A stretch of 38,690 nt of DNA from an uncultured Candidatus Saccharibacteria bacterium (GCA_964552895.1 CAZKIJ010000002.1:1-38690); one strand, 5' to 3'; counted from the stretch's first letter, positions 14,871 to 38,690 are shown. A program made the numbers and translations. The notes: a model not told the origin generated them from the sequence alone.

Positions 14871-15102
14871 AAAATTCTCCCGTTGGTTAATATAGGGTTT
14901 TGTTGTTCAAATTTCGACCATATTGTAAACGTACAGACATTGGCGTGTGTTCAGAGAAACAAAAAAGTCTTTGATTCTCATACAGCCAAAGACTCAGAAT
15001 TCTGCGTTAAGATTTCCTCGGTGGCATAATTAAGCTGTTTAGGCTGCCACTGTCTCTGGTATGTCTATACGGCATTATATAAAATGCTTTAACAACTGTC
15101 AA
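14871..15102 (-). promoter_or_regulatory. rplJ promoter (TTGACA-17-TATAAT) plus ~195-nt L10-type leader
   Basis: Minus strand: -35 TTGACA at 15097-15102 and -10 TATAAT at 15074-15079, exactly 17 nt apart. The leader contains a GTGGCA...TGCCAC helix and a terminator hairpin. Confidence 0.55.
14960..14995 (-). terminator. attenuator/terminator hairpin within the rplJ leader
   Basis: Minus strand AGTCTTTG-gctgtatgagaat-CAAAGACT followed by TTTTTTG, ~95 nt upstream of the rplJ ATG. Confidence 0.55.
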
Positions 15103-20923: not shown

Positions 20924-21343
20924 ATGAATATGATTATGGGAGAAATCAATACGAACACATCACCTGACATGTCAGCATTTAAGTATCCCATTGGGGCAAT
21001 GGATGTTGACGAAGTGCGTTACGAGACAAACAATGTGATGCTATCGTATTTTGATAATAGACAAGAGGTAGTAGATATATGGTGGAACGCGCCAAATCCA
21101 CGGCTTGATGGTAAAACACCTGCAAGCATGCTTCATGCCGACCCAAGTCTTTTCCCAAATGCGCACAACATGGTGTTTGAAGTTGCCCGTACTTTTTCAA
21201 GCTGGAAACCGCCACGATCCGACGAAGTTGATGCAATGTTCACCGTTGACGCTGAAAATGAGGCCCAGAAGCCTGTTGAGCAGCCACACGGTGCGCGTAT
21301 TATACGCATTGCTAAAGCAATTATCCTCCGCTCGGTTAACTAG
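20924..21343 (+). CDS. DUF2384 (Xre/MbcA/ParS antitoxin C-terminal)-like domain protein
   Basis: The segment FDNRQEVVDIWWNAPNPRLDGKTPASML resembles the W..PNP.LgG.tP core of the DUF2384 family. Three in-frame ATGs (20924/20930/20936) overlap or follow a TATAAT at 20920-20925. Confidence 0.45.
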   Translation: MNMIMGEINTNTSPDMSAFKYPIGAMDVDEVRYETNNVMLSYFDNRQEVVDIWWNAPNPRLDGKTPASMLHADPSLFPNAHNMVFEVARTFSSWKPPRSDEVDAMFTVDAENEAQKPVEQPHGARIIRIAKAIILRSVN

Positions 21344-28303: not shown

Positions 28304-29092
28304 CTAATCAAAGCTAATCGTGGTACGATGATTGGCTTTATCTTTTACGATGGTAGCTTCGCTGGCTTTTTTCTTTTTAACACTGACTTTTGGCTGGCCG
28401 GTTGTACGACGACGACGAGGTTTTCGTTCATCTTCAAATTCGATCATCGGTGCTACCGGTGAAAAATCAATACTTCGCGATGCCGTGCTTTGCGCAATTG
28501 GCATACGCACAGGCGGTGCTCGGCGGACGGTAATGGTTGGTTCTGGGATTGGTTTTGGCGCGTAGGGATCGTCCATTAAACGTTTTATCACACCACGAAT
28601 TTGACTGGCAAAGGTATGACGGCCACTAATAACGACGGCCTTTTCATTCGTCGCCGGTACTGTAAAACGTTCGACAATTTCATCAAACCGACTCGCCTCC
28701 ATGCCTTCAACTTCTTTTGTACTACGGGCTGAACGTCGGCTGGCCTCGGCAGAGTCTGTTTGTACCCAGATAAAAAACGGTTTATAACCGGCGCTACGGG
28801 CAACTTTAATCATTGTTTTTCGAAATTCACGACTGCCGGTGATATCTTCATATATGATCGTTTGGCCGGTTTTAAGAAATTCTTTCAGCAGTTTGTCGCC
28901 TATCGCTATCGCACGTGCTTCAGAATTGTTACTTTCATACCGTACACCGAGCATATGCTGCTCAATATAGCTTGGGTTGACGAATGGTACGCCAAACTCC
29001 TTTGCGAATTGCTCTGCAAAGGTTGTTTTGCCTGATCCTGGAATCCCTACCACCACGATCAAGTGTGGCCGCGCCAAACTCAACGGTTTCAT
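28304..29092 (-). CDS. P-loop kinase-like ATPase (AAA_33/zeta-toxin-like fold) with a long basic C-terminal tail
   Basis: LIVVVGIPGSGKTTFAEQF Walker A near the N-terminus when started at ATG 29092. The upstream 46 codons of the ORF-track form run through a terminator and a TGCTATACT -10 box. Confidence 0.6.
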   Translation of the reverse strand: MKPLSLARPHLIVVVGIPGSGKTTFAEQFAKEFGVPFVNPSYIEQHMLGVRYESNNSEARAIAIGDKLLKEFLKTGQTIIYEDITGSREFRKTMIKVARSAGYKPFFIWVQTDSAEASRRSARSTKEVEGMEASRFDEIVERFTVPATNEKAVVISGRHTFASQIRGVIKRLMDDPYAPKPIPEPTITVRRAPPVRMPIAQSTASRSIDFSPVAPMIEFEDERKPRRRRTTGQPKVSVKKKKASEATIVKDKANHRTTISFD

Positions 29093-29157
29093 ACTACAGT
29101 CAGTATAGCAAATCAATCCGATAATCGCATCTGTTAATATTGAGGCCGTTTTGCCAT

Positions 29158-29182
29158 GAAAAAAGCACCCTTTCGGGTGCTT
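29158..29182 (-). terminator. intrinsic terminator after the M23 peptidase gene
   Basis: Minus strand AGCACCC-gaaa-GGGTGCT then TTTTT. It is preceded by a second GC-rich hairpin, CGGCGGGCC...GGCCCGCCG (29193-29226). Confidence 0.75.
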
Positions 29183-29289
29183 GCCGCGTCGCCGGCGGGC
29201 CATCCATACTTCAGGACGGCCCGCCGACAACAGCGGTATTCCTCTTTAACGACGAGGAGCGGTTCATTTTAAAGAGACGAACGTACTCT

Positions 29290-29934
29290 TTACAGCTTGA
29301 TGCCGAAGTGTGCCATGAAGGCGGTGGGATCGAGCCACCGTTTTCCATACTTTTCTACCCAAGGGATAGAGAGAAGCCACGGATCACTGTCGGTACCAGG
29401 TGTTACTTCGAAATGGACATGAGGCCCAGTAGACTGTCCACATGAACCAATTGATCCAATCTGCTGACCAGCTTCCACTATGTCACCAACACGAACAAGG
29501 ATTTTGTCCCCGTTCATGTGCATGTATCCGATTTCAAAACCTGCTGCCGTTTTGATCATGACAAGGTTATTGCCGGCGGCTCCTTTTTTGCAACCCTTTC
29601 CGATTCCAGATGACACCACTGTGCCGCTAAATGCAGCGAACACTGGTTTGCCCAAGGTCCGGGATGCCGAACCAAGGTTTAAATCCTCACCATTGTGTGG
29701 TTTGACACTGGGATAATTCGGGTCATTAAAGGCACCACCATATGAAATACGGGATCCAGCGTCGAGTGGTAAAGAGGCACCACTCGGATTGACGTAAGAC
29801 GTTGTTGTCGCTGCGGGAGGCGAATCGTTCATTAAAAGCCTTGCAAAAGGCAGGCCCAGAATAACAAATAGTCCTCCAAAAGCTAGCACGAATATGCCAG
29901 CCGCAACTCCTCCAACTTTCATCCATCGTGACAT
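29290..29934 (-). CDS. membrane-anchored M23 (LytM-type) peptidoglycan endopeptidase
   Basis: N-terminal TM anchor. HNGEDL (HxxxD) and GPHVHFEV (HxH) zinc-ligand motifs. 9 nt downstream of the ATPase gene. Confidence 0.85.
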   Translation of the reverse strand: MSRWMKVGGVAAGIFVLAFGGLFVILGLPFARLLMNDSPPAATTTSYVNPSGASLPLDAGSRISYGGAFNDPNYPSVKPHNGEDLNLGSASRTLGKPVFAAFSGTVVSSGIGKGCKKGAAGNNLVMIKTAAGFEIGYMHMNGDKILVRVGDIVEAGQQIGSIGSCGQSTGPHVHFEVTPGTDSDPWLLSIPWVEKYGKRWLDPTAFMAHFGIKL

Positions 29935-29943
29935 GTTAACCCC

Positions 29944-31449
29944 CTAACCGAACTCGGATTGTCCGGTGCCCACGACAAGTGGTGTTTGCTGGCGACTCAG
30001 GCTCGCAAGCTGTGCAACTTTACGATTGGTATTGACCTGGTTCATCATCTCGTACGCTTGACGAGTACCGATGAGTCCTCTTTCGGCTGGCAAGAGGTGA
30101 TGATAGAATATCATCGGTAACTTGTCATTGAGGTGAAGGACAGCTTGGCCAACTTCCAAACGAGGTAGCAGATCAACGTATGATTGAGGAAGCCCAGTCA
30201 TAGCGATTTGGTGAAGTACCTCGTCATTATCGGGCTGACGATAGAAGATTCGTCCGGTCACGCCGAATTCTACTTCCATCGCAGCTTTGCGAAGTGGTGA
30301 ATCGGGTTCACCGACCATTGTGCTCTGAATGTCGTATTGAAATGCCTCGAACATTACTTGCATATACGCCCGAAGCTTATTTACCTTTGTTGCCTTCGCT
30401 TGCATATGAATGAGCTTGTTGGATGGGTCACCTTCTTCGTCACGCGAAATAGCGTGCGGCACGATCTTTGTAAGATCGACACCGCCGGTATTCATGCGGG
30501 CATATGTAATAGCACTTGCCTCGGCACGCATCAAAGCTGCTTCGATGACCTCACTTGCACCAGGATAATTATTATCCAGAATTTCCCAGTCAAGCCCAAC
30601 AACAGGTTGGCGTAGAACATCGTAGAGATCATTATCACCTCTAAAAATTCCACCATAGCCTTCTAAGAAAGCAAACAGTGCATCGGCCGCCTCTCTGGCG
30701 GCACTTAAGTGGTGATGTGCGAAGTAGTGCTGGTCTCGTATAGTTTCGGCACTAATCAGTATCTCTTGTGGAGTTACAATTAGATCAGTGCCTGGAACCG
30801 CGCTCCCTATCATTTGCTGGCCCATGATGGCATCGACCCCCTTCATATAGAAAGAGGCGAAATCATCAATATTTAGGCTCCGCACAATGTATTCGAGAGA
30901 TGCCGGATGAACGTATTGCCTGAGCGTAAACATCTTTTCGACGCCTACAAAAATTGCGATACGAGCTGCCGGACTTAGTCGCTGGTTGACCTCATAGTTA
31001 GCAATGTCGACTGCCAAAACGCGAATGTCATTCGGATGTTTAAACAAGCCAAAAACATTGATTCCGCGCGGGTCTGCCATGTTAATTGAAGTCGCGCCCT
31101 GTGCCTTGAGCATCTTTTCATATTCAGAAAATCCTTCAGCTGACTTGCGGCTGCTGACCTGAACACGTAGCTCTTCAGGGTTACCAAACACGTCGTAGCC
31201 TTGCATACATCCCATTCTCATGGATAGGGATTTCAGCGCGGTGCTTTTTCCGAAGCCGCGCATGCCAGACACTCGGAAGAATCCACCTTTGTTGTCGGCA
31301 TACGGCCACAAAAAAGCATTACGGCCAGTTGTGTTCTCAAATCCAAGAAATATACCGGATTTATGGGGGTTTTGCGGCACGATAGCAGGTTGCCAAAGTG
31401 CCATTGAATCCGCGATGCCGCGGTACATACGAGAGCCCAACAGGCTCAC
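29944..31449 (-). CDS. VirB4-like secretion ATPase, motor (C-terminal) domain only
   Basis: SGIFLGFENTTGRNAFLWPY...FFRVSGMRGFGKSTALK has the layout of the VirB4/TraC motor-domain entry plus Walker A. AGGAGG-N8-TTG suggests the true start is 31440. Confidence 0.55.
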   Translation of the reverse strand: MSLLGSRMYRGIADSMALWQPAIVPQNPHKSGIFLGFENTTGRNAFLWPYADNKGGFFRVSGMRGFGKSTALKSLSMRMGCMQGYDVFGNPEELRVQVSSRKSAEGFSEYEKMLKAQGATSINMADPRGINVFGLFKHPNDIRVLAVDIANYEVNQRLSPAARIAIFVGVEKMFTLRQYVHPASLEYIVRSLNIDDFASFYMKGVDAIMGQQMIGSAVPGTDLIVTPQEILISAETIRDQHYFAHHHLSAAREAADALFAFLEGYGGIFRGDNDLYDVLRQPVVGLDWEILDNNYPGASEVIEAALMRAEASAITYARMNTGGVDLTKIVPHAISRDEEGDPSNKLIHMQAKATKVNKLRAYMQVMFEAFQYDIQSTMVGEPDSPLRKAAMEVEFGVTGRIFYRQPDNDEVLHQIAMTGLPQSYVDLLPRLEVGQAVLHLNDKLPMIFYHHLLPAERGLIGTRQAYEMMNQVNTNRKVAQLASLSRQQTPLVVGTGQSEFG

Positions 31450-31490
31450 CTCCTAATTGTTGGTTTGTTAAAGTACATAGAGATGCTTTA

Positions 31491-31589
31491 CACCTCTGAA
31501 ATGCTATTAATAACATTCATTCATAACATTTCAGAAGTGTTGGGTGGGGCGATTGCTCGCCCCACCCGAGTCAGTCCTTCTGTCTGACT
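31491..31589 (-). other. three consecutive stem-loops in the spacer between the two VirB4-like genes
   Basis: AGTCAG/CTGACT (31569-31589), GGGTGGGGCG/CGCCCCACCC (31542-31567), CACTTCTGAAATG/CATTTCAGAGGTG (31491-31539). None has a clean T-run. Confidence 0.7.
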
Positions 31590-31590
31590 A

Positions 31591-33189
31591 TTACCTTGTT
31601 GGAATATGCATGATGGTCCCTAGTACAGTTTCCATCTGTCGGAAACGGCCTTTTACCCTTACGGGTTCCAAACCGTGCAGATCCAGATGGTTGTCGGCCT
31701 GTTTCACCTCATAGGCGAAAATTTCTTCAGGCGTCATACCACTGAATTCTGGACTATTTAAGTAGCGGTTGTATAGCCGCTGAAAGTCGTTAGTATCGGT
31801 TACACCATAGACAGCCACTGTTGGTTTGAAGTCAACAGTGTATTTACGGTCGATACGTTCGGCTTCTTGCTCACGACTTTCTTCTACCTTTGCCTCCTTT
31901 CTGCTGCTACGTTCTCGACCAATGAATTTCATTCCTTGGTCGCCAAACGTGTTTGCCACATCGACGAATACTCGTCGTGCACGTCCGCTACGACTTTTCC
32001 CTGCGATGTCCGTTGAAAAAAACATAACAGGGAGGTCGAAGACTCCAGAGAAGTCACGAACGTAATTGACGGGTGGTTGATCGAGTGGAAACTCGTCCAG
32101 TTCAAACACCGTTGCTAATGTACCGTCTATTTGCAAGCGGTCATTTTTAGCAATGATGTGTTGAGATGGTGCAAAACGGTCGGACGGAAACATTACATTT
32201 TCGTCCTTGTCCTCTGCCTCTACCATAGCAAGATGGTTCTCGCCATAGTAAAAGTGGATTTTTGCCACATCGCGCGCTTGACGTAGGTATGCCTCGAGGG
32301 CTTCTTGGCCAAGCACTTGAACGTCTTCATAGATGCCGCCCAGTAATTTTGTAAGCGTGTCACGAACTGATACCAACGACTGCTTACGCAGATCGCTTGA
32401 CCAAAACACTTTTCGCTTCAAAATTTTCCGGAACACACGGTTGTTCTTGAACGTCACCGTGTAAACCATGCGCGGATTGGTGCCTTGTACGCCAGCCTCT
32501 TCCATCTCGTTCAGCAGCTGGCGACGAAACGACCAGCGCTTTTCTTCAGGTGAGTACTCGCCCTCAGGCTTGTCCGTTATGCGCAAGGATTTACTTAGGG
32601 CGTTCAGATTGACCCGTTCAATGTTCGCATAGCTTACATCAAATGGGTTTCCCGGCAGGATGTCATATCCGTAATTTATACGAATACCATCGATACCGGT
32701 TTGAACGGCCGCTTTCTCAATGACGTCCTTAATACTTGCATGGACGCCCATTTGGCCGCCTAACTTGAGGGTGGAGATGTTGCTTCCACCAACAAGAAAG
32801 ACGACCGAATAGGTACGTCGCACCGTGTAGTAGACTAGAGCGATATCGTGAAAAACATGAACCTTGTAAGGGTACATGTCATCACTCATCCCTTCTTTCC
32901 AGATGACATCATGGCGACGCCAGATGAGGAAATTACGAATGGGTGCCACGAGGGTGATGTAATACCAACTATCATCACCACCTGGAGCAGGCATCAACGT
33001 CGCGAAGACGAAAATGAATGCTCCAATATACACTAGGTTCTGGAAACCAACGAAGAACGAGCCGATATAGGCCGCGACGATGGCAATGATCCAGATCCAC
33101 ATGATGTCCGCTGTAGTCAAAGGAAAGATACTTCTCTTCGGCGTCCTTGGATGGGACACGAAGTAATACGTATCCTTTTCATCACTCAT
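31591..33189 (-). CDS. membrane-anchored VirB3/VirB4 N-terminal-domain-like protein
   Basis: TM hairpin at residues ~28-68, then a ~460-aa soluble domain without a Walker A. Sits immediately upstream of the ATPase gene. The start overlaps the previous gene by 8 nt (ATGAGTGA) with a GAGGAGGGA RBS. Confidence 0.45.
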   Translation of the reverse strand: MSDEKDTYYFVSHPRTPKRSIFPLTTADIMWIWIIAIVAAYIGSFFVGFQNLVYIGAFIFVFATLMPAPGGDDSWYYITLVAPIRNFLIWRRHDVIWKEGMSDDMYPYKVHVFHDIALVYYTVRRTYSVVFLVGGSNISTLKLGGQMGVHASIKDVIEKAAVQTGIDGIRINYGYDILPGNPFDVSYANIERVNLNALSKSLRITDKPEGEYSPEEKRWSFRRQLLNEMEEAGVQGTNPRMVYTVTFKNNRVFRKILKRKVFWSSDLRKQSLVSVRDTLTKLLGGIYEDVQVLGQEALEAYLRQARDVAKIHFYYGENHLAMVEAEDKDENVMFPSDRFAPSQHIIAKNDRLQIDGTLATVFELDEFPLDQPPVNYVRDFSGVFDLPVMFFSTDIAGKSRSGRARRVFVDVANTFGDQGMKFIGRERSSRKEAKVEESREQEAERIDRKYTVDFKPTVAVYGVTDTNDFQRLYNRYLNSPEFSGMTPEEIFAYEVKQADNHLDLHGLEPVRVKGRFRQMETVLGTIMHIPTR

Positions 33190-34321
33190 GTTCCCTCCTC
33201 ATTCTAGCTCGAGGAAGTGGGCGATTGCCCAACGAGTCGATGATTCCAGCCAGAATCGGTGCACCAATTTTTGCTACTGGGTGTGGCGCTGCCATCCCCA
33301 CAGCTGTAATTGATTTTGTTGCTAAACCCTTCACTTTTTCAGAGAGGCTTGCGGCCTTTTGTCTTTTAAAAGTTTCAAGTTTGTCGACACCGAAATTTAC
33401 AGCGTGAACGCGCAACTGGTCGAAACGGTTGGTTAAAGCTGAACGAGGACGTCCCGCCAAATTAACATCTAGCCTCGCCTTGTTTTGGAGGATCGAACGC
33501 ATCCTGTTATTGACACGTGCAATCACGTTTCCAATAACCGAGTACGCACTCCTGTAAGCAACACCGCCAATAACAAACTGGAGAAAGATGCTAACAAGAG
33601 CTATGAACCACATGATGACGGATGCCAACACAGCGGTTCCGTCCCCACTTGGCAGGACACCGACAATGAGTTTTGCGATTCTGATGAGCGCAATCATCAC
33701 TGGCACTCCGAAGAGTGCACTAACTGCGTAAACTGAAATGATAAACGCGAAAAATTTTCGCGTTCTTTCACCCATTCCAGACGCAGCAAGTACCAGAATA
33801 CCAATGATAGTCAGTGCGACGTTGAGTGGTTCGTAACCAAACATCATCGACAACATTATGACCTGTACCCAAATTGTCAGTATGAAGACAAACCCAAGTG
33901 CAACTGGATCAGCCACATTAATACTTGGGATCTGGATAGTGAGTGCGTTCGAGGGACTGGATGGATTGTCGTAGCTTATGCCGAGGGCGACTTTTTTGAG
34001 AATGTCGCCCACCTGCTGTACTTGATCCATTCCAAAGAACCATAGAAGCCCAAACGTCGGCATGCCAACCAAAATAACAGCCGCCGAAATGCCATTTTTA
34101 CGTAATCGTGGGACCATGATGGCGAACACGAAGACGAACGCAAAAACATAGAGCGGAAGATTGAGCGACAAGCCGAAGCTATTGCCGTACAAATACTTCA
34201 CTAGATCCAGTCCGTTGAACGAAATGGAAATACTCAGAATTTTTGCGATGGCATCCCATAGTGCTGCAATTGCGTTTTTTAATGCCTCAAGGAGGCCAGG
34301 GAACAGAAACGGCATTGCCAC
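33182..34321 (-). CDS. polytopic inner-membrane protein, VirB6/TrbL-like by topology and position
   Basis: At least 6 long hydrophobic helices followed by a basic cytoplasmic tail. Translationally coupled to the VirB4-like gene. There is no motif-level evidence. Confidence 0.4.
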   Translation of the reverse strand: MAMPFLFPGLLEALKNAIAALWDAIAKILSISISFNGLDLVKYLYGNSFGLSLNLPLYVFAFVFVFAIMVPRLRKNGISAAVILVGMPTFGLLWFFGMDQVQQVGDILKKVALGISYDNPSSPSNALTIQIPSINVADPVALGFVFILTIWVQVIMLSMMFGYEPLNVALTIIGILVLAASGMGERTRKFFAFIISVYAVSALFGVPVMIALIRIAKLIVGVLPSGDGTAVLASVIMWFIALVSIFLQFVIGGVAYRSAYSVIGNVIARVNNRMRSILQNKARLDVNLAGRPRSALTNRFDQLRVHAVNFGVDKLETFKRQKAASLSEKVKGLATKSITAVGMAAPHPVAKIGAPILAGIIDSLGNRPLPRARMRREHE

Positions 34322-34383
34322 TCCTTCCTATAAAAAGACATTGATTCAAGATATACTCGAACCGTTTTCTTTTATTGGTCGAC

Positions 34384-34761
34384 TTAGCCGTTGCAGGGTG
34401 AAGTACCGAATGCTGAAACACCTGAGAACAGTGAAACACCAGCGATGGCGACGGCTATCACGGCAACAAACCTAAGTGCGACAGCTTTTTTTGACCTAAG
34501 CGAAAGGCCAAATGTCACTATTGCAATTATGGCGAATACCGCCACAACGGTTGGCCAGTTGCTGAAGATCACCCCCATTGCATTACCAATAATGCTGTTG
34601 AGGTTGCCGACCGCACCTGACTTGACGAAGCTGTTTTGCCAGTCGCATTTGATCGTGATGTCACCAGTTGGCACGTACGCTGCACCGTGGACGTTGATGG
34701 ACTGCATGAGCTCGATAGACTTGCGTAGAACAAGTCCGCTCAAAATGGAAATTGCGGACAC
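34384..34761 (-). CDS. small membrane protein with a TM-RSKK-TM hairpin (VirB2 pilin / VirB3-like candidate)
   Basis: GTG start with AAGGGGG-N5 RBS. Two C-terminal TM helices. Cys at IKCDW and at the C-terminal SPCNG. The overlapping + and - ORFs look like shadows. Confidence 0.45.
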   Translation of the reverse strand: MSAISILSGLVLRKSIELMQSINVHGAAYVPTGDITIKCDWQNSFVKSGAVGNLNSIIGNAMGVIFSNWPTVVAVFAIIAIVTFGLSLRSKKAVALRFVAVIAVAIAGVSLFSGVSAFGTSPCNG

Positions 34762-34784
34762 GATGGCCCCCTTCTGTTGGACGG

Positions 34785-35987
34785 CTATGCCGTCTGAACG
34801 GTTGTTTGCTGATACTGTGAGGTATCAGCAATGTGAGCCACCACTGATGCGGAGGCCTGACGCTGCTCAGTACGAGCAACGTATTGTTGCTTCTTGCGGT
34901 CGTTGCGTTCCATTGCAAGAACAGTGAAAGCACGTCCGAGTTCGGACACACCATACAGCATTCTTTCATCAAGAGATGCCTCGCTGATCTTGCTGATGTT
35001 GCGGAAGTTTCCGCCCCCCTTGATGTATTGGGAAAACGGAACCAAGGCGATCTGCTTAGGTGGAACACCATAGCGGTCAGCCATTTCGTAGTGCGTTTTG
35101 AGATTGTACTCTCGCTCCGGAACACCGTCGATGACGATGAGCACGTGCGAGGCGACTTTTCCATCGTCATTCCGCAGGTTGAATGGCGTGTAATTCAGAG
35201 TCTTGCTGATTGCTTCAAGTTCTTTGGAGCTTTCAGCCAACCCCGGTGTAACAACCACATCTGCCACGTTGACGAGTCCTATCGTTGCGAACCGCGTCTC
35301 GCTGGCACCGGGTTCGGTATCAGCGATGAGCGTATGACAGACTTTTTTGGCCTCTTCCGCCACCATGATGGTGTCGTCTTCATCCATGAGAATCCCGCCT
35401 TCAGCAGGAATTACCATGACGCCAGACTCGGCATCGAACGCAGTCATTTGTGAAATGAACTGGTTCTGAGGTGTCCATCCTTGGCTTAAGCGTTTCGCCC
35501 AGGCCGCTCCACCTATAGTATGACGATGTGCATCGTCAAGGTGGAGTCTCATCATCACGCCTGGATTGCTCTGATCGGCATCGTAAATGATGACGTCGTG
35601 CTTTGTCTTTTTCAGGATGATTCCCAACAGTGTGGCGATAATGGTTTTACCAACACCACCAGCGGCACCTGCAGTAACACCAGTCGCGTTTGAGGCGGCA
35701 TAGTTACTGAGGATAAACTGAACGTTTTCCTGATACGCCTTCTTGTAGTTGATGAAGACGGGAATTGGTCGCTGAAGTTTTTCCCACAGTGTGTAAAACC
35801 GTGCGTAAAACCACCACCGACGTGAATAACCGTACTTCGCAGCGATCTTTTCGCTGTCTTGAAGCCAGATGGGTAGTTCTTGTACCCATTTCGGCCTCTC
35901 TCCTTCTTCCCGACGTCGGAAACGCTCGGGAGGACGTTCTCCAAGGCGCTCGATGCGCTCGGTATGACTGCTTGAGTTTTCACTCAT
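34785..35987 (-). CDS. ParA/MinD/CpaE-superfamily ATPase with a ~100-aa Arg/Glu-rich N-terminal extension
   Basis: GAAGGVGKTIIATLLG P-loop followed by VIIYDAD (switch I-like) and LIADTEPG (Walker B-like). It is the first gene of the co-directional block. Confidence 0.65.
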   Translation of the reverse strand: MSENSSSHTERIERLGERPPERFRRREEGERPKWVQELPIWLQDSEKIAAKYGYSRRWWFYARFYTLWEKLQRPIPVFINYKKAYQENVQFILSNYAASNATGVTAGAAGGVGKTIIATLLGIILKKTKHDVIIYDADQSNPGVMMRLHLDDAHRHTIGGAAWAKRLSQGWTPQNQFISQMTAFDAESGVMVIPAEGGILMDEDDTIMVAEEAKKVCHTLIADTEPGASETRFATIGLVNVADVVVTPGLAESSKELEAISKTLNYTPFNLRNDDGKVASHVLIVIDGVPEREYNLKTHYEMADRYGVPPKQIALVPFSQYIKGGGNFRNISKISEASLDERMLYGVSELGRAFTVLAMERNDRKKQQYVARTEQRQASASVVAHIADTSQYQQTTVQTA

Positions 35988-36173: not shown

Positions 36174-36896
36174 TCATCCTTTCCGTTGTCGCAAAATTTC
36201 TATTACTTTACGTTTTGACCGTTCCTTTCCAGGGGTAAGTGCATTCACTAATTGCTCGCCATCTCTTACGTGCACGAGTCGGTGAATTTGCTGATCATTT
36301 TGTGCCGGTGTATCAAGTGATACGACCCAACTGTTCCATCCTGGAAGGAAGTTCCAAAATGAAGCATAGTATTTCTCGACTTGTACTTGTTCTCTTGGAT
36401 ATTTGAATCTGGAACCAAGCAGACCAAGCGCCAATACACGGGGTACGTAATCGGTAAAGTAGTCCTCATCGACAATGGGGCGCGCAAACTTACCAAGCAC
36501 AAATTCACGTGACCAATACCATAGCGATGCAGTGAGTAGAACAATGCTTATGAGTATGACGGTCGATGTGGCTTGTGGTGAATACGCCACCGTGACTTTG
36601 AGCGCTGCAACCGCCAGTACAACCACGAGCGCGACGATAGACGTCGGTAACCAGATATATTCGATGATACGAGTCCAAAAATATGGCTTGTCGTATCGTT
36701 CAAGTACCTCTGGATGACGCATAATGAATTCCGACGCTTCTTGTTCAAGCCGTGCGTCTTCCTCTCGTCGGCGTTGTTCCGCGAGAAGAATAGCATCTGC
36801 GTACAGCTTTATTTGATGAATATCATCGGGGCCGTACTGGCTCAGGTCAAGTTTTGACGAGTGAATGTCGGGTAGGTCTTCAGGGATGTTATCCAT
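36174..36896 (-). CDS. 2-TM membrane protein, possibly with a bacterial PH (bPH_2/DUF304-like) C-terminal domain
   Basis: ATG 36896 has AGAGGA 4 nt upstream. The ORF-track TTG at 36953 has no RBS. Acidic/coiled N-terminus, TM hairpin, ~110-aa C-terminal domain. Confidence 0.55.
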   Translation of the reverse strand: MDNIPEDLPDIHSSKLDLSQYGPDDIHQIKLYADAILLAEQRRREEDARLEQEASEFIMRHPEVLERYDKPYFWTRIIEYIWLPTSIVALVVVLAVAALKVTVAYSPQATSTVILISIVLLTASLWYWSREFVLGKFARPIVDEDYFTDYVPRVLALGLLGSRFKYPREQVQVEKYYASFWNFLPGWNSWVVSLDTPAQNDQQIHRLVHVRDGEQLVNALTPGKERSKRKVIEILRQRKG

Positions 36897-36963
36897 GGTG
36901 TCCTCTGTCTGTTCGGATCGGAAAGCGAATACTACTCGCAATATTATTCGCAAGTCTAACTAT

Positions 36964-37460: not shown

Positions 37461-37661
37461 ATGAAGCATAAAAAGCGCGGCCCAACTCATCCACTGCTCC
37501 CAAATAAAGCTGAATACTGTTATGTCGACGGCAAGAAGAAGCGCAAATATAAGACAAAACTAGATGCCGAATTATCTGCACCGGTGCATGATCTTCATCA
37601 ATACGTGTGTGACTATTGCGGTTTTTGGCACAATGGAAATTCGAGTTTAAAAACCCGTTAA
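37461..37661 (+). CDS. small basic protein with a CxxC motif (66 aa)
   Basis: TATAAT at 37448-37453 sits 7 nt before ATG 37461, so the ORF-track start at 37425 lies upstream of the promoter. Lys-rich. C...YVCDYCGFWH suggests a zinc-ribbon-like fold. Confidence 0.45.
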   Translation: MKHKKRGPTHPLLPNKAEYCYVDGKKKRKYKTKLDAELSAPVHDLHQYVCDYCGFWHNGNSSLKTR

Positions 37662-37943
37662 TTTTTTAATCTGTGCTCGTATAATGCCTATTTCTTTTTC
37701 AGTCAGCGTGATGGCGGTAGCACCAAGAAAATGAGCAACAGTTCTCTCAATAAAACGCGGTGCTTGACGTCGATCAACACCATAGGTATTGATAAGCTGC
37801 AATACAGAATCAGCGGCTACAATGCCGAGCCGAGTGGGATAATCGTCGACTTTTCTTGTAAAATCTGGATCAGAAATCAACTCCTGCAACCCATGTGGAT
37901 GGTCCGGTGAATTGATATATGTTTGTGGGTCAATTGGTCTCAT
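37647..37943 (-). CDS. hypothetical protein (98 aa)
   Basis: Intact ORF with plausible composition. Its 3' end overlaps the convergent small gene by 15 nt. No family recognised. Confidence 0.5.
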   Translation of the reverse strand: MRPIDPQTYINSPDHPHGLQELISDPDFTRKVDDYPTRLGIVAADSVLQLINTYGVDRRQAPRFIERTVAHFLGATAITLTEKEIGIIRAQIKKLTGF

Positions 37944-38099
37944 GATGTATATAGTAGCAGATGTGAAACAAAGGGATAGATAATAGGAATTAGAGTAGAA
38001 TATAGTGAATTGGTGGTCGCTATTAATTATTTTAAAAATATCTGTAAACTTGGCATCACTTTTGTCACTGTGATTAAATCTTATTCAAACATGGCTACC

Positions 38100-38195
38100 G
38101 TTGCCCAACCCTTCACGTGAACATGCTGGTTCTTATGGCCGGGCTAGCAACTACACGAATCTAGTTGTTAGCCTGACCATAGTTTTACGGGCAAC
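38100..38195. other. extended imperfect hairpin / structured intergenic element
   Basis: ATGG-ccg-GGCTAGCAACTA / TAGTTGTTAGCC-tga-CCAT (38135-38180), enclosed by GTTGCCC (38100-38106) / GGGCAAC (38189-38195). Confidence 0.6.
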
Positions 38196-38274
38196 CAGGC
38201 AATATATATCATACACTTTTTTTAGGATAAAACAAATTGTTTATATTGTTGCCGTTTAGGAAGTGCACAGAACT

Positions 38275-38690
38275 TTACAACGCCCCACTTACTACTAATT
38301 CGTCTGTTGATCCATCTGCATTAAAGATAATTAAAGCCCGACCCTTAACTGTTGAAGACATTACCTGATTATAGAAATTAATGACATTATCTAAAACACT
38401 TGTATTGTCATTTTTGTCATTAAGTCCTAGCCTCTTAAGTACATCTGCAACCTCTTGATTAATATTTACTGATAACCTCGACTGTGGTTCTTTATCTTCA
38501 GTAGTGTTAAATGTATAAAATAATGGAATTATCTCAGAACCTGATTGTGTTTGCACGTGGAATTCACCACCATTAGTAAAATTTTGCATAGCAAAATCAT
38601 AAATAGCAACAGCTCGTCGAATGTGCTCAGTAACCGAAATTGGGAACATTGTTCGTAACATTTCTAATTTTTGAGCATTCTGTTTAGATA
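38275..38690 (-). CDS. hypothetical protein, AT-rich gene, probably 5'-truncated by the window end
   Basis: The frame upstream of Met 38661 stays open to the window edge. A 60-nt hand count gives roughly 35% G+C, visibly lower than the neighbours. Confidence 0.5.
   Translation of the reverse strand, partial: SKQNAQKLEMLRTMFPISVTEHIRRAVAIYDFAMQNFTNGGEFHVQTQSGSEIIPLFYTFNTTEDKEPQSRLSVNINQEVADVLKRLGLNDKNDNTSVLDNVINFYNQVMSSTVKGRALIIFNADGSTDELVVSGAL

Follow-up and report, generated by a model that had tools for sequence, protein, structure and literature searches.

What is secretion-like machinery doing in a reduced chromosome when nothing beside it suggests conjugation? The question is raised by six co-directional open reading frames (ORFs) at positions 29290-35987, on the minus strand, of a 38,690-nt stretch of DNA from an uncultured Candidatus Saccharibacteria bacterium (CAZKIJ010000002.1; hereafter the window). 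Separated by 23, 62, -8, 141 and 9 nt (from the ORF coordinates), they encode, in the order of transcription, a ParA/MinD-superfamily ATPase, a small membrane protein (p125), a polytopic membrane protein (p379), a protein with a membrane hairpin and a large soluble domain (p532), a P-loop ATPase of 501 amino acids (aa) and a membrane-anchored M23 metallopeptidase. An earlier note, written from the sequence alone, had read the cluster as a minimal type IV secretion system (T4SS) of the monoderm type. The positions and tight packing that it gave were exact, the motifs that it quoted are all present (GAAGGVGKT, RSKK between hydrophobic helices, the ATPase motif, HNGED and HVHFE), and its T4SS interpretation is supported by the analysis presented here. 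The balance of the evidence inclines us to regard it as a chromosomal module that derives from the mating-pair-formation core of a conjugative T4SS of the actinobacterial (monoderm) type, lacks a relaxase and a type IV coupling protein (T4CP), and would serve an accessory, non-conjugative translocation function. Of this genome the analysis covered the 38.7-kb window, and of related loci up to +/-10 kb of sequence.

A motor protein resembling VirB4

Scanning of the six proteins with Pfam and NCBIfam hidden Markov models (HMMs), a check advised in the earlier note, recognised Peptidase_M23 (2.2e-20) and CbiA/ParA (5.4e-7) and nothing else: the 501-, 532-, 379- and 125-aa proteins gave no significant direct match, the P-loop ATPase having none in Pfam at E<=0.1. 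A PHROG scan of the six proteins added nothing beyond M23/ParA, and searches of the PDB with a single sequence or a 3-sequence profile returned no match. A word-indexed search of 5.8 billion proteins yielded two ATPase relatives and, for p532, a single one, all with the same neighbouring genes; overall, the word-indexed searches contributed 2, 1 and 2 extra relatives, so few because the family diverges too fast. No match was obtained among GTDB species-representative genomes scanned with short peptide patterns from the ATPase alignment, a result limited by the specificity of the patterns and no proof of absence, nor in a scan of viral and mobile-element contigs; one metagenome pattern scan returned 4 loci. 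The family members sampled all come from metagenome assemblies and are unannotated, save one labelled "hypothetical protein".

An exhaustive HMMER search defined an ATPase family of 126 clusters at 50% identity, nearly all of them 480-520 aa long with a Walker A motif near residue 65. In the window protein (29944-31449, minus strand, GTG start), for which hydropathy predicts no transmembrane (TM) segment, the motifs read SGIFLGFENTTGRNAFLWPY...SGMRGFGKST, with Walker A GMRGFGKST (K68), Walker B D337-E338, R360 and Q371. In a 90-sequence alignment of the family, K68, E109, E338 and R360 are invariant and Q371 is nearly so. From this alignment AlphaFold2 produced a model with a predicted local distance difference test score (pLDDT) of 87.7 and a predicted TM-score (pTM) of 0.84, the model from a 3-sequence alignment (pLDDT 41) being unusable. 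The top Foldseek match was the VirB4 C-terminal domain of Thermoanaerobacter (4AG6/4AG5; E 6e-10, TM-score 0.69 when normalised to target length), followed by HerA, DndH-C, Cag-beta/VirD4 and TrwK/VirB4. By sequence, the family profile matched 4AG5 at E 7e-5, and 2 of the 90 members showed sub-threshold matches to AAA_10. Judging from its modelled fold, the 501-aa protein is an FtsK/HerA-superfamily motor closest to VirB4, with the length of the VirB4 C-terminal half only. Its earlier assignment to the VirB4 motor domain is upheld by the Foldseek match and by the profile-profile links described below. Lack of any similarity to VirB4 in HMMs or structure had been named in advance as telling against a T4SS; direct HMMs came close to that outcome, and the 90-sequence alignment, the fold and the profiles reversed it.

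A split VirB4 shared with actinobacterial conjugation genes

A tblastn search of plasmids with the window ATPase found no match, and the link to plasmids was made through another protein, P0131. The ATPase family profile detected P0131 at E ~1e-33, and hhalign aligned the whole family to its residues 222-625 (99.8%, E 1e-27). The gene for P0131 (633 aa, with a DEAW Walker B) shares its cluster with genes for a VirD4-type coupling protein, ArdC, SSB and DUF6112 proteins, and homologues of P0131 occur on 579 plasmids, predominantly actinobacterial. Among the records listed, the match is confined to its residues ~200-627, suggesting that the plasmids have a separate gene for a protein of ~500 aa. 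A comparison of the additional 220 residues at the P0131 N-terminus with SCO6880 spoke against their equivalence (hhalign E 0.21). In the plasmids (from Citricoccus, Pseudarthrobacter, Streptomyces, Leifsonia, Pseudonocardia and Arthrobacter, for example), the block consists of a wall hydrolase (SLT, CHAP or C40), a small protein of ~100 aa, a membrane protein of 320-590 aa, an SCO6880 protein of ~500-550 aa, an ATPase of ~510-570 aa and a T4CP, in that order. The T4CP gene lies directly after the ATPase gene or a few genes downstream in the actinobacterial loci L085, L087, L092-L097 and L103, and the last of these, a metagenomic locus of actinobacterial type, also carries a TrwC relaxase. The T4CP genes in these clusters, together with the relaxase in L103, argue that the actinobacterial reference system is genuinely conjugative.

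Profile-profile comparison with hhalign extended the resemblance to neighbouring genes. The ATPase family aligned with the actinobacterial VirB4-type ATPase at E 2e-39, the p532 family with the SCO6880 family at 98% probability and E 1.5e-13 over 461 columns (92% and 7e-7 in an earlier run), and the p379 family with the actinobacterial membrane protein at 86.7% probability and E 4.4e-6 over 343 columns; mismatched family pairs, run as controls, all gave E-values of at least 0.002. The families of small proteins aligned at E 0.055, which is not significant. Three consecutive homologous genes, for the membrane protein, the SCO6880-like protein and the ATPase, are thus collinear in the Saccharibacterial module and in actinobacterial plasmids.

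The actinobacterial ATPases match the VirB4_CagE, TraC, CD1110 and VirB4_plasma models at 1e-10 to 1e-15, and do so only over model positions ~430-740. SCO6880 proteins match the N-terminal part of the VirB4 model CD1110 (positions 202-362, 3e-5), and one actinobacterial member matches PrgI (PF12666) at 5.6e-4. Since the ATPases cover VirB4 models C-terminally only and the SCO6880 proteins N-terminally, the two together make up a split VirB4. On profile homology, p532 and the 501-aa ATPase are the Saccharibacterial counterparts of this pair, an SCO6880-type protein being encoded directly upstream of a VirB4-C-type ATPase. The VirB4-family ATPase by which a T4SS is recognised, the only T4SS protein that is ubiquitous, is accordingly present, in split form. 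The p532 protein (532 aa; 31591-33189, minus strand) has a TM hairpin at residues ~21-63 by hydropathy; its N-terminus matches the mycoplasma VirB4_plasma model marginally (E 0.039) and gives no direct match to PrgI/VirB3. Its description as resembling VirB3 and the VirB4 N-terminal domain was borne out through SCO6880 and CD1110. None of seven Saccharibacterial proteins matched the NCBIfam SCO6880_fam model, so the locus represents a distant sister group rather than a member by the NCBI definition.

Five of seven actinobacterial SCO6880 proteins (from L087 and L092-L097) also match the type VII component EccE (PF11203, 6e-7; TIGR03923, 3e-7). Together with the VirB4 N-terminal matches, this hints at a VirB3/VirB4-N-like module common to T4SSs and ESX systems.

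Membrane proteins, hydrolase and ParA-like ATPase

The p379 protein (379 aa; 33182-34321, minus strand; ~7 TM segments by hydropathy) is probably the VirB6/TrbL counterpart, judging from profile homology. Three of four actinobacterial counterparts match TrbL (PF04610) or TrbL_4 at 3e-5 to 2e-4, under the Pfam gathering thresholds, and p379 itself has no direct TrbL match in Pfam. The earlier VirB6/TrbL-like label therefore stands insofar as p379 is homologous to a TrbL-like actinobacterial protein, and fails as a direct match.

The smallest protein, p125 (125 aa; 34384-34761, minus strand), has TM segments at residues 70-88 and 94-112 by hydropathy. Its layout, consisting of a leader, a conserved Cys, TM1, a basic loop (RSKK), TM2 and a conserved C-terminal Cys, recalls the topology of VirB2/TrbC pilins and makes p125 a candidate VirB2-like surface or pilin subunit. 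Homologues in L083, L089 and L102 keep the order Cys, TM, basic loop, TM, Cys; the one in L083 matches TrbC/VirB2 (PF04956) weakly (E 0.05). Two of the actinobacterial small proteins belong to Pfam DUF6112. The two conserved Cys residues, before TM1 (KCDW) and near the C-terminus (PC or KC), are seen in the window (34384-34761), in L083 (8403-8738) and in L102 (5436-5798). After leader cleavage both would sit outside the membrane; conceivably, a disulfide between them could close the hairpin, recalling the VirB2/TrbC pilins that are cyclised head-to-tail.

The last gene of the cluster (29290-29934, minus strand) encodes a 214-aa metallopeptidase of the M23 (LytM) type, with intact HxxxD and HxH motifs (HNGED, HVHFE) and a single N-terminal TM anchor (residues 10-28, by hydropathy). 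By analogy, this is the wall hydrolase of the module, in a VirB1/PrgK-type role; it would be analogous and not homologous to the lytic transglycosylase VirB1. Its placement in the wall-hydrolase slot, as first noticed, agrees with the Pfam match, the TM anchor and the hydrolase genes that follow the ATPase in related loci. A dedicated peptidoglycan hydrolase, another mark of T4SSs, is present.

At the other end lies the ParA/MinD-superfamily ATPase (400 aa; 34785-35987, minus strand). It has a basic, Trp-rich N-terminal extension of ~100 aa and a deviant Walker A (AAGGVGKT) without the signature lysine. The CbiA match is above the curated Pfam cutoff, matches to ParA and BcsQ are sub-threshold, the PHROG match is to a ParA-like family (3e-6), and no PDB match by sequence was found at E<=0.01. 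Homologues with conserved motifs (37-38% identity) occur in the L083 clade. In three distant loci, the ParA slot (L100:5210-6622, L102:3735-5396, L104:326-1903) is occupied by proteins of 470-553 aa that lack a Walker A and match nothing in Pfam; their hhalign similarity to the ParA-like family is weak (E 8.5e-4), and they may be degenerate ParA relatives or unrelated.

Upstream of the six genes, at 36174-36953 (minus strand), a seventh encodes a 259-aa membrane protein (p259) with two predicted TM segments at residues ~105-146 and N- and C-terminal domains predicted to be cytoplasmic. Homologues at the same position in L083/L084/L088-L090, the nearest lineage, are 35-38% identical and co-conserved with the six genes; on these grounds 36174-36953 should count as a member, and the first gene, of the conserved cluster. 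No match to p259 was found in Pfam, NCBIfam or PHROG, and no homologue was detected in the more distant loci, so that p259, like the ParA-like ATPase, is confined to the window/L083 lineage. Four distant loci have an extra gene for a 150-209-aa protein between those for the ATPase and the hydrolase (L098:4474-5103, L100:11575-12027, L102:10393-10962, L104:6833-7336), which is found neither in the window nor in L083. These proteins and p259 are candidate VirB8-like components.

A double hairpin between the VirB4 halves

The 141-nt gap between the p532 and ATPase genes (31450-31590, minus strand) holds a GC-rich 11-bp stem right after the p532 stop codon, without a U-tract, then a stem of ~23 bp with a recurring TTCTGA...TCAGAGG core, and finally AGGAGG, a strong Shine-Dalgarno sequence, ahead of the GTG start of the ATPase gene. 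The minimum free energy of the double hairpin is -67.7 kcal/mol (z -8.9). The two-hairpin layout is kept in the equivalent gap of 8 related loci, with coordinates L083:11561-11715, L001:520-710, L091:438-587, L098:2763-2990, L100:9832-10000, L102:8652-8861 and L104:5160-5339 among the relatives. RNAalifold predicted 31 pairs, 7 of them with compensatory changes, and no Rfam family matched. In most of the actinobacterial plasmids examined, the SCO6880 and ATPase genes abut or overlap. The double hairpin may serve in mRNA processing, stability or attenuation, and it may allow the ATPase and hydrolase genes to differ in expression or mRNA stability from the genes for the membrane proteins.

Conservation and evolution of the module

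The same genes in the same order were found in at least 8 independent metagenomic loci, at 20-67% protein identity, and the arrangement is therefore not due to chance; the conservation that the earlier note proposed to look for exists and reaches deep divergence. In L083/84/88-90, L098, L100/101, L102 and L104 the genes for the membrane protein, the p532-like protein and the ATPase are followed, in some cases after a small protein, by a hydrolase gene, whether for an M23 enzyme, an NlpC/P60 enzyme or both; such a gene comes after the ATPase gene in every related locus. Neither T4CP nor relaxase genes were found in the window or within the available sequence (up to +/-10 kb) of L083/L088-90, L098, L100, L102 and L104. 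The distant loci are presumed to be Saccharibacterial and are called Saccharibacterial-type here; nearly all family members resemble the window in having the amino-acid composition of a moderate GC content.

The window shares the neighbours of its module with L083 and the relatives of that locus: p78 on one side and AAA_33, YgjP, PAS kinase, GT2, SecE and NusG on the other. The module proteins of the two lineages are 35-41% identical, and flanking genes range from 36% to 93%. A neighbour-joining tree of the ATPases separated 9 actinobacterial sequences from 90 Saccharibacteria-type ones by a single bipartition, with greater diversity on the Saccharibacterial side, which points to an old split and not to repeated recent transfer. 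A recent island inserted at a tRNA gene was considered and rejected: there is no tRNA gene or att repeat, and the locus is syntenic in a lineage that has diverged by ~60%. At the equivalent site in S. epibionticum ML1, a DUF11 protein and tRNA-Trp are all that lies between AAA_33 (0426) and MscS (0429); no PF01551 protein and no second 4AG6-like ATPase was found in ML1.

Relation to known systems

Relaxase-less T4SSs of the monoderm type have already been described in Patescibacteria, namely in TM7x, in S. epibionticum ML1 and across 3,035 genomes (PMC7427843, PMC10633639, PMC12102498). The canonical Saccharibacterial system, which has no relaxase, is essential for epibiotic growth according to transposon sequencing in ML1 (PMC10633639), and the role of the canonical Patescibacteria T4SS has been called completely unknown (PMC11665869). 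This system (Quinonero-Coronel et al. 2025) resembles the module in being monoderm-type and chromosomal, in having no relaxase or T4CP in its cluster, in combining a VirB4-type ATPase and a VirB6-like protein with wall hydrolases downstream of the ATPase, and in occurring in the same group of organisms; a non-conjugative role has been proposed for it as well (PMC10633639, PMC12102498). A gene-by-gene table for ML1 nevertheless led us to reject the idea that the module is the published Saccharibacterial T4SS. In ML1 the canonical genes, SEML1_0006-0019 near the origin, encode a 612-aa VirB4 (K12063; 4AG6 domain; structural homologues named DUF87/TraG-P-loop), PrgI (PF12666), 998- and 1088-aa membrane (VirB6-like) proteins, an NTF2/VirB8-like protein, 643- and 1113-aa hydrolases and six PF18895 pilins. 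Pfam and NCBIfam searches of the window module found no PrgI, PF18895, VirB6-like protein of ~1000 aa or one-piece VirB4 of ~610 aa, and it has one small protein in place of an array. The missing canonical signatures and the absence of the module from the ML1 site together indicate a variably present second system; on gene content, the module is a distinct and smaller system of actinobacterial type, separate from the canonical T4SS. A literature search found no published description of it.

The closest parallel is the actinobacterial split-VirB4 core, with the same gene order, very similar sizes and a cell-wall hydrolase nearby; in the Pseudonocardia cluster a peptidase even follows the ATPase directly, as in the module. 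The two differ in that the actinobacterial clusters have a VirD4-type coupling protein (and a relaxase in L103) and an SLT, CHAP or C40 hydrolase, whereas the module has an M23 enzyme, a double hairpin that parts the SCO6880-like and ATPase genes, and extra genes for the ParA-like ATPase and the 259-aa membrane protein.

In plasmid pCF10 of Enterococcus, the prototype of MPF_FATA, the genes for PrgH (VirB6-like), PrgI (VirB3-like), PrgJ (VirB4) and PrgK (a membrane-anchored multidomain hydrolase with a LytM/M23-type domain) stand in this order, and the plasmid also encodes a VirB8-like protein (PrgL), a coupling protein (PcfC) and a relaxase (PcfG). The prgH-I-J-K order is mirrored by that of p379, p532, the ATPase and the M23 peptidase. 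The architecture differs in that pCF10 has a separate VirB3 and a one-piece VirB4, whereas the module has a VirB4 that is itself divided, its N-terminal half carrying the VirB3-like hairpin as a fusion.

A precedent for a repurposed T4SS core is provided by cmdABCDEF (SCO4126-4131) of Streptomyces coelicolor, a chromosomal, non-conjugative cluster with a membrane-located VirB4-like ATPase, CmdB, in which cmdB/C/D resemble SCO6878/6880/6881 (PMC2782261). By its published description it has the same kind of parts as the module; it is actinobacterial and tied to sporulation and chromosome segregation, with no hydrolase or ParA described (PMC2782261). Gene order in S. coelicolor differs too, in that the ATPase-like SCO6878 precedes SCO6880, whereas the module has its ATPase after p532. 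Helicobacter ComB (a DNA-uptake system), Bordetella Ptl and Brucella VirB are powered by VirB4 and have neither VirD4 nor relaxase (PMC12102498, PMC11665869); DNA import and protein export are thus within the capacity of such a minimal set. They are diderm systems with a VirB7/9/10 outer-membrane core and no split VirB4; their detectable sequence relationship to the module is at the level of the VirB4 superfamily only.

Proposed function and alternative explanations

From the homology, gene order, fold and catalytic-residue conservation described above we infer the following assembly and function. The VirB6/TrbL-like p379 would form a membrane channel; p532 would be anchored in the membrane through its VirB3-like hairpin and would recruit the 501-aa ATPase through its VirB4-N-like part. 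VirB4 ATPases of solved T4SSs form hexamers, and the 501-aa ATPase would power assembly and translocation. The M23 endopeptidase would open the cell's own peptidoglycan locally, p125 would be an exposed, VirB2-like subunit, and the lineage-specific ParA-like ATPase and p259 might position or regulate the complex. Most likely, the whole would move proteins or other macromolecules across the Saccharibacterial envelope, by export or import, as an accessory, strain-variable function in host interaction; it would do so alongside the canonical Patescibacteria T4SS. A non-conjugative role seems the most likely because the DNA-processing parts are missing and the chromosomal site is fixed.

Several observations weigh against this assignment. 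Since direct scans of the four key proteins were empty, it relies on transitive profile and structural evidence; in Foldseek, VirB4 leads HerA, DndH and VirD4 by one to two orders of magnitude in E-value only. The link from p379 to VirB6 has two steps, the TrbL matches of the intermediates being below the gathering thresholds, and the VirB2-like label for p125 lacks statistical support (TrbC E 0.05; hhalign E 0.055). No VirB8-like (NTF2-fold) protein was found in the cluster with Pfam, NCBIfam or PHROG. The absence of the module from the equivalent site in ML1, a genetically tractable strain, means that it is not universally needed. A T4CP or a relaxase could be encoded elsewhere in the genome, of which 38.7 kb were seen. 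Finally, the GC content of the module exceeds that of its flanks in all six loci examined (module/flank: window 0.48/0.45; L083 0.52/0.45; L090 0.51/0.45; L100 0.53/0.48; L102 0.59/0.46; L104 0.53/0.45), which is unexplained if the acquisition was ancient; in the window, GC at third codon positions (GC3) reaches 0.56 in the module as against ~0.42 in the flanks.

This GC difference would fit a rival reading, in which the cluster provides the transfer functions of an integrated conjugative element or is a plasmid remnant, either still conjugative with relaxase and T4CP acting in trans or slowly decaying since its integration. The closest relatives outside Saccharibacteria do reside on conjugative actinobacterial plasmids, ParA-like genes are typical plasmid cargo, and presence is variable, with tRNA-Trp at the very site that lacks the module in ML1. 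Action in trans would also accord with a 2025 survey in which most T4CP homologues of Patescibacteria are encoded far from virB4 (PMC12102498). We nonetheless consider this reading improbable, given that integrase, relaxase, T4CP, tRNA genes and flanking repeats were all absent from the window and from the available sequence (up to +/-10 kb) of L083, L100, L102 and L104, that the ORFs are all intact, with catalytic residues invariant over 90 highly diverged sequences, and that lineages whose module proteins are 35-41% identical share the same chromosomal site. The clean separation from actinobacterial ATPases in the tree speaks against recent or repeated transfer, and viral and mobile-element contigs held no match. 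Another possibility is that the complex, derived from a T4SS, serves the cell itself and not secretion to a host, with a part in division, budding or segregation of the chromosome, the ParA-like ATPase providing a link to DNA or to positioning at the cell pole. It would then be comparable to Cmd, whose deletion causes defects in sporulation, segregation and septation (PMC2782261) and whose CmdB/C/D proteins resemble SCO6878/6880/6881, the window proteins being themselves homologous to the SCO6880-type pair; a ParA-family gene upstream in the cluster and a wall hydrolase suited to a septal role point the same way. Variable presence is unusual for a core cell-cycle function, however, the ParA-like gene is restricted to the window/L083 lineage, and the likeness to Cmd, whose own mechanism is unknown, was drawn from the published description. 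We regard this role, too, as unlikely.

A function outside T4SSs altogether, for instance as the HerA/FtsK-type motor of an anti-phage or DNA-processing membrane complex or as part of an apparatus resembling ESX or the type VII secretion system, might be suspected from the additional Foldseek matches to HerA, SIR2-HerA, DndH-C and TdpAB (E 1e-9 to 1e-6), the EccE matches of SCO6880 members (Pfam 6e-7, TIGR03923 3e-7) and a weak match of the ATPase profile to EccC/FtsK. It is very improbable in view of the best structural and sequence matches, which are to VirB4, the VirB4/TraC matches (1e-10 to 1e-15) of actinobacterial homologues that adjoin T4CP genes and, in L103, lie near a relaxase, and the TrbL-like neighbouring membrane protein; nearby there are no genes for a nuclease, SIR2 or another defence partner, nor for EccB/C/D, MycP or WXG proteins.

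Among T4SS-based explanations, a more specific one deserves mention, speculative as it is: the module could be a second, cryptic translocon, taken from the conjugation apparatus of Actinobacteria, which evolved to breach actinobacterial envelopes, and used by the epibiont, without the DNA-processing parts, as a strain-variable conduit into its host, for injection of effectors or uptake of host macromolecules (nucleic acids, for example), so that its variable presence would help to set host range.

A central question is by what means the ultra-small Saccharibacteria, which live on bacterial hosts, and other Patescibacteria exploit those hosts, and the module adds a second, much smaller T4SS-like machine in some Saccharibacteria. 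Its nearest relatives are conjugation genes of Actinobacteria, the phylum parasitised by cultivated Saccharibacteria. If it acts at the host interface, the module may be one of the factors that determine host range or parasitic strategy, and it is compact enough (5-7 genes) for reconstitution; if it is a Cmd-like device or a domesticated remnant of an integrated conjugative element, it still illustrates clearly how a reduced genome can turn conjugation hardware to another use. Published surveys may have overlooked the module, which standard T4SS HMMs fail to detect, and HMMs built from the module families would improve the detection of monoderm T4SSs. The split VirB4 (SCO6880 plus ATPase) is a recurrent and almost unstudied architecture in Actinobacteria.

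Genomic neighbourhood

With its seventh gene the module spans ~7.7 kb. It adjoins the SecE-NusG-L11-L1 region, ~18 kb from dnaB and away from dnaA/dnaN. The remaining genes of the window are housekeeping ones (Nramp, GreA, a two-component system, CysS, RecR, DnaB, DnaX, L10, Tmk, dCTP deaminase, ThyX, L1, NusG and SecE), confirming that the flanks are ordinary chromosomal DNA, and DnaB is 84-90% identical to that of metagenome-assembled genomes of Candidatus Saccharibacteria/Saccharimonadales, which identifies the organism as a Saccharibacterium. As the earlier note had stated, relaxase, T4CP (VirD4/TcpA-type) and integrase are missing from the window: none turned up among its scanned ORFs of at least 100 aa. 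The window has no tRNA gene and no att-like flanking direct repeats, the repeats found being short, imperfect and internal.

An L10 leader (RF00557, 60.4 bits) lies at 14951-15077, on the minus strand, upstream of the L10 gene; it is an ordinary one and confirms the housekeeping context. The AAA_33 kinase ORF next to the module (28304-29230) is listed as 308 aa, whereas its relatives have ~188 aa and align to residues ~34-241 only; its TTG start was probably over-called, and its Lys/Arg-rich C-terminal tail is not found in L083. Between the genes for L1 and a FAD-linked oxidase, a small ORF (20924-21343) has a sub-threshold match (1.4e-4) to the C-terminal domain of Xre/MbcA/ParS antitoxins and may be left over from a toxin-antitoxin system. 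The right end of the window (37647-38661), with a GC content of 0.34-0.42 and a GC3 of 0.24-0.31, contains small unannotated ORFs, one of which matches phrog_8557 (function unknown, E 2e-4); this segment may be a separate piece of foreign DNA.

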